Positions 57,491-59,383 of a stretch of DNA of 64,000 nucleotides are shown here, in pieces. The notes under the pieces were generated by a model. It did not search any database. It saw nothing but the letters and a program-made list of their open reading frames with translations, and was not told the origin of the DNA. Location: assembly GCF_016903815.1 (NCBI RefSeq), contig NZ_CP069972.1. One strand, 5' to 3'. Source of the stretch: Escherichia coli. Lineage in GTDB: Bacteria; Pseudomonadota; Gammaproteobacteria; Enterobacterales; Enterobacteriaceae. Each line of letters begins with the position of its first letter. The first letter of the stretch is position 1. Made by a program: the position numbers and the translations under genes.

Positions 57491-58117
57491 ATGATAATAG
57501 TATTAGGTAGTCAAAAGGGTGGGGTAGGTAAAAGTACACTGGCGGTATCTATAGCTGCGTATCTGATGTCACTAGGCAATAGAGTGATTATTGTCGACGC
57601 AGATGACCAGAAATCAGTATTAACCTGGTACAACAATCGCCCTGAAGATCTCCCTCATATTCCGGTTACAGGCGCGACAGGTAACATCAAAGCCATGTTA
57701 AAGGAACACGAAAAATCCTATGATTTTGTTATTGCAGACTGTGCTGGCCGTGATAGCGCAGAAATGCGTAGTGGATTGATGGCCGCAGATGTATTCATTT
57801 CTCCTTTGCGCCCATCTCAGATGGACCTGGATGTTGTGCCTCATACATGCTCCGTTTTTACAGCAGCAAAAGATTTTAATGAGGATGTTCGGGGATATCT
57901 CGTTTTAAACATGACGCCCACAAATATGTTTGTTAATGAAGCCAATGAGGCAGCTGAAGTACTTAAGGATTACCCTGAAATGCATCTGGCAAACTCCCGG
58001 GTATGTGATCGTAAAGCACATCGAGATGCTTGGGCCGAATCAATGACAATTTTTGAAACGCAAAATGATAAAGCCCAGCAAGAAATCGAAGCGTTAGTGA
58101 AAGAGGTTATTCTGTGA
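57491..58117 (+). CDS. parA: ParA/ParF-like small Walker-type partition ATPase (208 aa)
   Basis: Deviant Walker A GSQKGGVGKST. Confidence 0.85.
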   Translation: MIIVLGSQKGGVGKSTLAVSIAAYLMSLGNRVIIVDADDQKSVLTWYNNRPEDLPHIPVTGATGNIKAMLKEHEKSYDFVIADCAGRDSAEMRSGLMAADVFISPLRPSQMDLDVVPHTCSVFTAAKDFNEDVRGYLVLNMTPTNMFVNEANEAAEVLKDYPEMHLANSRVCDRKAHRDAWAESMTIFETQNDKAQQEIEALVKEVIL

Positions 58118-58416
58118 GAAATAGAGCAAACACTTCACCTCGTGACGAGGCAGCATTTATTAACGGTGGCACGGCTGGCCTTGATAATACCAAAAAGTCA
58201 TCAGATAAATCATCGGTTGTAAGCAAAGCAAAACCAGTGAGTATTTCTTTTTTTGAAGAAAACCTAAAAGACATTGATGCCCTTATAACGGCTGAGATGG
58301 TTTCAGGTAAAGGCAGAGTGAATCGTTCTGATGTTGTCAGGGCGGCGGTAGAAGCACTTAAAACACTATCAAAAACAGAGGTATCACGATTGATAGCAGA
58401 AGTAAAACAAAGATAA
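58114..58416 (+). CDS. ParG-like centromere-binding protein with C-terminal RHH (100 aa)
   Basis: Translationally coupled to parA; C-terminal GRVNRSDVVRAAVEALK RHH-like. Confidence 0.6.
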   Translation: MRNRANTSPRDEAAFINGGTAGLDNTKKSSDKSSVVSKAKPVSISFFEENLKDIDALITAEMVSGKGRVNRSDVVRAAVEALKTLSKTEVSRLIAEVKQR

Positions 58417-58420
58417 CACC

Positions 58421-58486
58421 TTGTTATCTTGTTATCTTGTTATCTTGTTATCTTGTTATCTTGTTATCTTGTTATCTTGTTATCTT
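58421..58486. repeat. Downstream array of ~8 direct 8-bp repeats (TTGTTATC)
   Basis: Same unit as upstream array. Confidence 0.8.
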
Positions 58487-58541
58487 CAATGTATTTTAGG
58501 ATGACCTATGTTGAATAGAACCTAAAACAAAACAAATATTA

Positions 58542-58833
58542 ATAGGGGTCCGCTTGGAAAAGGGAAATTTTCCCACGCTAAGAGAATTGAGTTGAACGAG
58601 TGGTTACATCCAGGCCAGCTAACTCACTGAACGTAAAGGCTGTACGAAATGTTCCGGCCGTCCGATAACCGTTTGGCTTACTTCCGTACATTCCCTTGCG
58701 TAGATGTACAGAATTGTACGATTTCGGACACCAAAACCGCTGTTGTCCCGCCATTCTGGCGATTCCTGAAAGTCCTTTGACTAAAAAATAGTCTTAACGT
58801 GGTTTATTTTCCGAATTCCAAGCGGACCCCTAT
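58542..58833. mobile_element. 292-bp element bounded by 18-bp perfect terminal inverted repeats (MITE/IS-remnant-like)
   Basis: ATAGGGGTCCGCTTGGAA at 58542-58559, reverse complement at 58816-58833; no ORF inside. Confidence 0.4.
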
Positions 58834-59035
58834 CAGGCCTGCCGTGGGGATTTTGTGGTGCGTCTCGACGGCAGCACCTGTCTGCAGTTATGGAATAAAG
58901 AAGGCAGGGTGGTACGCCGGGAGGGCGATCCGCTGGAAGTGGCGCAGTGGCTGCTGGCCTGTCATGACGCAGGAATAGAAGTTCGCGTACAGATAAATGA
59001 AAGTGCCGCTCCGTAAGAACACGCCTGTGCACGGT

Positions 59036-59383
59036 TTACACATCATCCCATGGTGGCAGCCGGTTAACTTTCCTGCGCCACCAGTGGAAAGAGGCCATGC
59101 ACAGTCCGAACAAAAAACCCCCCGTGATACTTATAATAATGGCCTCACCTGCCACCATTCCTGACGGCCCCCAGTAGATAAACCACATTGCACATCCCCA
59201 GGAAATGCCCCATAAGCCCCCCGTCAGCACCGTGACCTGCCAGAACGGCATAAAGGGTAATGGCGGAAGCCGGATACCCAGCCGCCATAGAATACGCAGA
59301 AGAGGAGGGGCATAATTGCTCCGCCACATCTTTTTGCTGTCCATCAGGGCAATGGCCCGGGCTTTTTTCTGCTCAAAGGTCAC
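59036..59383 (-). CDS. Hypothetical Trp-rich membrane protein (115 aa, GTG start)
   Basis: GGAGG 7 nt before GTG; 2-3 TM helices; adjacent to immunity gene. Confidence 0.45.
   Translation of the reverse strand: MTFEQKKARAIALMDSKKMWRSNYAPPLLRILWRLGIRLPPLPFMPFWQVTVLTGGLWGISWGCAMWFIYWGPSGMVAGEAIIISITGGFLFGLCMASFHWWRRKVNRLPPWDDV

Follow-up and report, generated by a model that had tools for sequence, protein, structure and literature searches.

The window analysed here, a 64-kb stretch of Escherichia coli DNA (64,000 nucleotides) with an IncI-complex plasmid backbone, contains behind its partition genes a short segment that is bounded by inverted repeats and directly followed by a small GTG-start ORF. 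This raises the question of what the segment is, how it came to lie at this place and what happened to the gene on its right side. Positions 58545-58830 are in our judgement quite probably a miniature derivative of a Tn3-family transposon (TIME, Tn3-derived inverted-repeat miniature element) that has kept the transposon ends and a res region, and whose right tip has anchored an adjacent deletion.

The surroundings of the left end are those of a partition module. Downstream of parA/parB-like genes (57491-58416) an array of 8-bp CTTGTTAT repeats is located at 58412-58491 on the plus strand, in agreement with the neighbouring partition repeats reported in the earlier note, and the left junction of the element follows 53 bp further on. 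The number of 8-bp repeats differs between plasmids, with about 9 copies in the window, 5 in pTMSA1088 (L129, 1612-1676) and 6 in p510016_84 (L130, 2612-2664); in pTMSA1088 an extra inverted block GATAACAAGATAACA is additionally found by the repeats of the parB-like gene.

The perfect 18-nt terminal inverted repeat ATAGGGGTCCGCTTGGAA described earlier is real and occupies 58542-58559 and 58816-58833. Its 15-mer core GGGGTCCGCTTGGAA occurs at only two places in the 64-kb window, one in each arm, and a perfect pair of this kind within 300 bp is expected by chance at ~3e-4 (64,000 x 300 / 4^18, own arithmetic). The arms reach 47 nt inward at 79% complementarity. The length of 292 bp given in the earlier note is correct for the span of the repeat pair and too long for the element proper: the bases beyond the left GGGG and the right CCCC vary between copies and homology to the copies of other plasmids stops exactly there. 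Therefore, the outer ATA/TAT were assigned to the flanks, and the complete non-autonomous derivative (TIME/MITE) comprises the 286 bp from 58545 to 58830. The left terminal inverted repeat of 38 bp, GGGGTCCGCTTGGAAAAGGGAAATTTTCCCACGCTAAG (58545-58582, plus strand), shows the layout GGGG...ACGCTAAG of Tn3-family ends, and 30 of its 38 positions are identical to the right terminal inverted repeat of 38 bp (58793-58830, minus strand, reverse complement GGGGTCCGCTTGGAATTCGGAAAATAAACCACGTTAAG). The ends had been described as unlike those of common IS, which was borne out, since the element derives from a Tn3-family transposon.

With 286 bp the element lies within the size range of such derivatives (about 50-500 bp) and carries no transposase gene. 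The claim that it holds no ORF stands in practice: the internal ORFs are at most 58 aa long and unconserved, single-base indels of diverged copies fall inside them, and no ORF between the repeats encodes a transposase of its own, as would be found in an autonomous IS. Searches of the whole 64-kb window with tblastn gave neither tnpA nor tnpR, and no serine recombinase is encoded there. No known RNA was detected over 58350-59100 with Rfam at a permissive threshold; the predicted fold of the element is strong (z = -6.3), as is the case for any element with terminal inverted repeats.

The element is widespread on plasmids. Matches were obtained in 2,187 PLSDB plasmids, and in 568 of these they cover at least 80% of the element; it is present in full or as a fragment in 1,368 of 5,426 complete E. 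coli genomes (about a quarter), with at least 80% of it found in 539 (9.9%). The E. coli locations were 1,768 on plasmids versus 34 on chromosomes, and 56 metagenome contigs carried the element as well. In nearly every match listed for PLSDB and E. coli an annotated feature under the element is missing. At least 25 distinct flank pairs were distinguished, and homology ends at the repeat tips in unrelated contexts that comprise IncI, IncK, IncF, ColV and ColE2-type plasmids, a chromosome and metagenome contigs. The element follows the parAB repeats in IncI/K/Z plasmids (window, L001, L130, L131), lies between two colicin operons of a small ColE2-type plasmid (L004), between cvi and cbi in ColV plasmids (L007) and at the same genes in a chromosome (L132), and is found next to pemIK or a relE pair in IncF plasmids (L006, L133, L135).

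Flanking 5-mers were compared for about 27 flank pairs and were identical in only one of these, TATAA in the IncF plasmid L006. No empty site for this copy was found in PLSDB, and its two flanks derive from different modules. Four unrelated contexts have TATAA ahead of the left repeat, and the match is therefore possibly a coincidence driven by target preference. In a sub-lineage with the left repeat GGGGTCAGCCTGG, the left flank of L142 and the right flank of L185 share the 7 nt TATATCA, which are out of register for a 5-bp duplication. Incomplete and diverged copies were also observed. In an IncFII blaCTX-M-55 plasmid (L005, 3985-4207) a copy is truncated after nt 206 and directly preceded by a 13-nt stub of another left repeat, GGGGTCCGCTTGA; the 206-nt truncated copy recurs with 96.6% identity among the matches from E. 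coli, Klebsiella, Salmonella and Shigella plasmids, its context having been read in L005 only. A much more diverged relative of the right half, ending in CTCCAAACTGACCCC, the terminus of MITESen1, is located at about 1000-1089 of the IncF plasmid L006, whose full copy is 3 kb away.

A scan of one genome per bacterial species with the 15-mer gave many chance matches. The full 38-bp repeat is kept at 33-37 of 38 positions in a coherent set of loci from Enterobacterales and Shewanella, namely in Photorhabdus, Pantoea, Erwinia, Cedecea, Rahnella, Serratia, Pectobacterium, Tatumella, Xenorhabdus, Budvicia and Shewanella. At several of these loci the repeat directly adjoins an ORF of ~1,000 aa, and with the NCBIfam model for Tn3-family transposases NF033527 (cut-off 500 bits) the products of L054 and L116 scored 1,213 and 1,177 bits. 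The repeats beside the intact tnpA genes of L054, L116 and L137 match the ends of the element at 35-36 of 38 positions, which gives the ~38-bp Tn3-family ends (GGGG...ACGYTAAG) a counterpart in autonomous transposons; the left repeat is identical at 36 of 38 positions to the tnpA-flanking repeats of L054 and L137, and the right repeat aligns with the tnpA-proximal repeat of these relatives. One of them, L137, is carried by the E. coli plasmid pUTAK-8-1, whose TnpA WP_021242989.1 is taken as cognate to the element; the cognate TnpR is WP_044067600.1. The autonomous relatives have tnpR and tnpA in divergent orientation and separated by about 160 bp, a gap that is the usual location of res in Tn3/gamma-delta-type transposons. 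Among solved structures the parental TnpR is closest to the gamma-delta and Tn3 resolvases (1GDT, E = 4e-26).

Cognate transposons were found in 76 of the 5,426 complete E. coli genomes (about 1.4%) and are thus about seven times rarer in this species than the element; their DNA identity to the L116 reference is only ~81%. A Tn3-family transposon that adjoins a copy in E. albertii pEA24_2 was considered as helper and rejected as unrelated, its TnpA being 28% identical and its ends being different. Two further loci with these ends were recorded. In Photorhabdus cinerea DSM 19724 (L012-L021) at least 10 contigs have the 38-bp repeat at a distance of 113-127 nt from their ends, and in L013 and L014 it occurs twice in tandem orientation, which suggests that a high-copy element with these ends broke the assembly. 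In Budvicia aquatica (L071, 3651-7040) the repeat occurs twice in inverted orientation with 3.4 kb between the copies. The interval holds a transposase gene of the IS110 family and lacks tnpA; the whole may be a non-autonomous unit with Tn3 ends that carries a further IS.

The interior of the element resembles the intergenic region of these transposons. From position 81 to 215 of the element (window 58625-58759) the sequence can be aligned, nearly gap-free and in a single orientation, to the ~160 bp between tnpR and tnpA of L116, L054 and L137. The scores of 80, 74 and 83, respectively (z 4.7-5.9), were reached by none of 300 dinucleotide shuffles (about 50 +/- 5.5, maximum 71), the local alignment by itself being only marginal and the likeness lying in a profile of short half-sites. 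The 12-bp half-sites TGTmCGnAA are located at element positions 97+, 115+, 146-, 161+ and 186- and at positions 26+, 44+, 75-, 90+ and 115- of the L116 res, with identical spacing of 18, 31, 15 and 25 nt. They form three sub-sites in the order III-II-I, with site I toward the former tnpA and the third site on the tnpR side. The sub-site III-like sequence, TGAACGTAAAGG and TGTACGAAATGT (58628-58652, plus strand), aligns with the tnpR-proximal part of the parental res. The sub-site II-like sequence of 32 bp (58659-58690) has the inverted half-sites CGTCCGATAACC ... TACTTCCGTACA and corresponds in length and position to TGTACGATAG...CTTTCGGACA of the L116 res. The sub-site I-like sequence of 26 bp, TGTACAGAATTG-TA-CGATTTCGGACA (58705-58730), contains the putative crossover and has the length and the position nearest the tnpA side of the parental TGTACGAAACCGACCAGTTTCGGTCA. 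At the level of sequence, a three-sub-site res as in TIMEs of the IS101/TIME244 type is present.

The conservation of diverged copies agrees with this assignment. The half-site cores are conserved at 87% in a 75%-identical copy (L115) and at 78% in a Xenorhabdus copy (L110), compared with 64% and 55% for the rest of the interior and 87-88% for the terminal repeats; the difference between half-site cores and remaining interior gave Fisher p = 0.002 (L115) and 0.004 (L110), with half-site positions that had partly been picked by eye beforehand. Directly inside the right repeat ~18 bp (CTTTGACTAAAAAATAGT, 58775-58792, plus strand) align with CTTTGTACAAAAAACAGT, the last codons of tnpA in L137 and L054 (...L-Y-K-K-Q-S-stop), and were recognised as a tnpA relic. 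For the 45 bp inside the left repeat no match was seen beside the repeat of any parent examined. Overall, the element is collinear with its parents in the order repeat, res, tnpA tail and repeat, with the genes removed.

Polymorphisms shared between the copies are mosaic over the full length of the element (four-gamete test, Rm >= 14), which shows exchange or recurrent mutation, and not exchange specifically at res. Several copies share one flank only; L190, for example, combines a ColV-type left flank with an L192-type right flank. A crossover at sub-site I was considered for such hybrid copies and discarded: L190 is ColV-type throughout and the incompatible site pairs are spread over the whole element, and therefore there is no evidence for res-specific exchange.

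The right side of the window copy explains the small ORF. Directly after the element, 58831-59016 on the plus strand comprise codons 136-196 and the stop codon of a 196-aa gene of the IncI-complex backbone, 59 of 61 aa being identical to residues 136-196 of WP_000194576.1, the product of the intact gene in pUTAK-4-1 (L003). Since the right tip abuts codon 136 of this gene, the GTG ORF is its 3′ remnant; the 5′ part is absent from the window and not displaced. The ORF had been given as 54 codons from GTG 58855 to 59018 with a frame running back into the right repeat. Its start and the open frame were confirmed, the frame being open back to 58798 without a start codon before 58855; its end is at 59016, stop included, and it has 53 codons. 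Both the GTG and the preceding GGGGA are ordinary codons of the intact gene, and GGGGA, which had been proposed as SD, is part of its R-G-D coding sequence. Of the two effects suggested for the downstream gene, truncation holds, as a gene that other IncI-complex plasmids carry in full is reduced to its 61 final codons exactly at the tip, and a new promoter is not supported, no sigma-70-like site having been found in or near the element. The reading as a MITE-like insertion is likewise right for the type of element, which is MITE-like and non-autonomous, with the refinement that this copy is not a simple insertion: the flanking 5-mers TAATA and TATCA show no 5-bp target duplication, and the 5′ part of the gene is missing. 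No family match was found in NCBIfam for the 196-aa protein, the remnant or the 85-aa protein of the gene that precedes the 196-aa gene in this DNA.

The junctions of related plasmids share the left side of the window copy and differ on the right. The left junction ...ATATTAATA/GGGG is common to L001, L002 and L130, and L131 has ...ATATTAAT/GGGG, which is one A shorter. Element-free alleles were not found for the left junction of the window and do exist for the right flank. In L131 and about 35 similar plasmids of 94-173 kb (mostly ~160 kb), the 196-aa gene is intact and the right tip abuts codon ~11 of the 85-aa gene, so that the right junction lies 631 bp upstream of that of the window in the same DNA. 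None of the 12 best PLSDB matches listed joins the left repeat to the 5′ half of the 196-aa gene. In L131 (1762-2013) RefSeq annotates an 83-aa CDS (WP_031322317.1) that starts at an ATT in the right repeat and runs into the truncated 85-aa gene, which is probably an annotation artefact of the junction.

Other rearrangements were seen at the same spot. A second Tn3-like terminus, GGGG(G)T(T)CTACGCCGGAACCGCCGAAATTTCCG, occurs in L129 (1729-1765) and in L130 (2979-3010). In pTMSA1088 (L129) it stands at the position of the left junction and replaces the element, and in p510016_84 (L130) it lies within the right repeat, which it interrupts after ...AACGTG; transposon ends seem to have struck the site repeatedly. 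In L002 (2231-2321, corresponding to window 58542-58632) only the first 88 nt of the element are left and are fused to codon ~7 of the colicin Ia gene, the deletion having taken away the remnant ORF together with the genes for the DUF6404 protein, immunity and the colicin. Its breakpoint coincides with the edge of the res-like region and is next to a CCGTACA motif in cia. The 88-nt fragment occurs in many IncI/K plasmids, the junction itself having been read in L002 only.

A route by which the window copy may have arisen can be proposed from these junctions. The Tn3-family TnpA would recognise the two 38-bp terminal repeats, a serine resolvase (TnpR) of the gamma-delta type would resolve cointegrates at the three-sub-site res, and mobility of the element would require both proteins to be provided by autonomous relatives. 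The window copy is probably inactive, because the window holds neither tnpA nor tnpR, and it is most likely an inert passenger. The element occupies a fixed spot just past the parAB repeat array of the IncI-complex backbone, where its right tip would have anchored deletions that ran into the adjoining DNA, reaching the 85-aa gene in L131 and the 196-aa gene in the window. One left junction with two right junctions, and no precursor among the matches listed, is the pattern that one-ended adjacent deletions would leave, and suggests deletions anchored at the end of the element. One-ended adjacent deletion is a known outcome of the intramolecular transposition of Tn3-family elements. Intramolecular replicative transposition of this kind ('adjacent deletion'), driven by a past TnpA in trans, is the most likely route and is ranked above recombination between two copies, although the remaining sequence alone would look the same after either event.

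Recombination between two copies is a possible, if doubtful, origin of the same structure. Two former copies, one after the parAB repeats and one in the 196-aa gene, would have recombined, either homologously or through TnpR at res, and left one hybrid. Most copies of the element have no target duplication, several share one flank only (such as L190), the Rm value points to extensive exchange or recurrent mutation among copies, and a res-like site is at hand, all of which agrees with such an event. However, the required precursor is absent among the top PLSDB matches listed, and the incompatibilities are spread across the element instead of being concentrated at sub-site I. Moreover, target immunity of the Tn3 family normally disfavours a second copy in the same replicon, and would do so here.

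The segment is very unlikely to be a conserved multimer-resolution site of the plasmid itself that is flanked by inverted repeats and not mobile. The earlier note had named such a conserved site without empty-site alleles as the finding that would speak against a mobile element, and a part of this was encountered: the interior resembles res, the left junction is constant in IncI, IncK and IncZ plasmids without an element-free allele, and a partition module adjoins the element. However, the right flank is known without the element, and the identical 286-bp unit with the same tips is found in at least 25 contexts, including ColE2-type, ColV and IncF plasmids, a chromosome and metagenome contigs. 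Its ends are Tn3-family repeats common to autonomous transposons, and a serine recombinase is not encoded in the 64-kb window.

Decay in place, with insertion of a complete Tn3-family transposon at this site and later loss of its genes through internal deletions within the plasmid lineage, is likewise very improbable, since despite the collinearity with the parent (repeat, res, tnpA 3′ end, repeat) the deletion endpoints are the same in every copy of unrelated replicons and even in the 75%-identical copies of other genera (L115, L110), and miniaturisation therefore took place once, long ago, with the small unit spreading afterwards.

The element thus described accounts for several breakpoints, namely that of the truncated 196-aa gene in the window, those at which plasmids like L002 lost the colicin Ia gene and kept the first 88 nt, and that of the 206-nt stub seen in IncFII CTX-M plasmids like L005. 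Plasmids of the IncI-complex, ColV, IncF and small colicin types have it at junctions of rearrangements, and it is almost never flagged by annotation pipelines; the small GTG ORF of the window is a remnant and should not be annotated as a gene. More speculatively, the element could be by far the commonest Tn3-derived MITE of E. coli plasmids and at the same time a portable recombination site that marks the seams between modules and acts as a hidden driver of plasmid mosaicism, a proposal that we put forward tentatively. If it is true, the seams would be the joins of colicin, toxin-antitoxin, partition and virulence modules, the near-universal loss of the target duplication would result from recurrent deletions or inversions driven by TnpA and from exchange between copies driven by TnpR or RecA, and the element would not be an inert scar.

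A description of the element was not found in the full-text literature searched with the repeat sequence and for MITE or TIME together with IncI1, colicin or 286 bp, a search that covered neither ISfinder and TnCentral nor subscription journals, and the element is provisionally left unnamed. The same applies to the autonomous transposons with GGGGTCCGCTTGGAAAACGG... ends (L054/L055 of Pantoea sp. IMH, about 15 kb, L116 and L137), for which no published name was found. They share with the element the ends (35-36/38), a collinear res and the last codons of tnpA, and differ from it in encoding TnpA (about 1,000 aa), TnpR (192-197 aa) and cargo, whereas the element encodes nothing. Among Tn3-derived miniature elements of Enterobacteriaceae it would be the fifth and by far the most frequent, and the third with a recognisable res after IS101 and TIME244. 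The repeats of Tn21, Tn3 and Tn1721 were also included in the end comparison, and the argument does not depend on them. In Tn21 and Tn1721, tnpR and tnpA point the same way.

The sequences of IS101, TIME244, IMU and MITESen1 were taken from Table S2 of PMC13367494, and at the level of at least 95% identity and coverage used there none of them is the same as the element over its whole length, the repeats alone being alignable. IMU (288 bp, pCHE-A) and MITESen1 (256 bp) are similar to it in size, in their Tn3-family repeats and in having many copies without direct repeats; the left repeat of IMU matches the right repeat of the element at 31 of 38 positions and MITESen1 shares GGGGTC.G.TTGGA, but their interiors are unrelated and similarity to res is reported for neither. 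IS101 of pSC101 is, according to PMC4133298 and PMC13367494, the classic gene-less Tn3-family derivative, an element of 209 bp with ends and a functional res that is mobilised in trans by gamma-delta/Tn3 functions. Its repeats are only 18-21/38 identical to those of the element, its interior has no similarity, and its function is experimentally proven, whereas the element is known from sequence alone. TIME244, a 244-bp Tn3-derived miniature element of Enterobacteriaceae plasmids (Gomi and Yano 2026, PMC13367494), is like the element in being non-coding and almost confined to plasmids, in its 38-bp Tn21-subgroup-like repeats (24-30/38 versus the element) and in an interior that was interpreted as res by its similarity to the parental res. 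The two interiors are unrelated, a forced global alignment giving about 50% identity, the level of noise. The res of TIME244 resembles that of Tn21/Tn1721, while that of the element matches the res of transposons in which tnpR and tnpA diverge and the resolvase is gamma-delta-like. TIME244 was found in 0.94% of Enterobacteriaceae genomes (PMC13367494) and the full-length element in 9.9% of E. coli genomes, the datasets being different, and TIME244 is known from antibiotic-resistance composites, whereas the element is seen as single copies at the junctions of plasmid modules.
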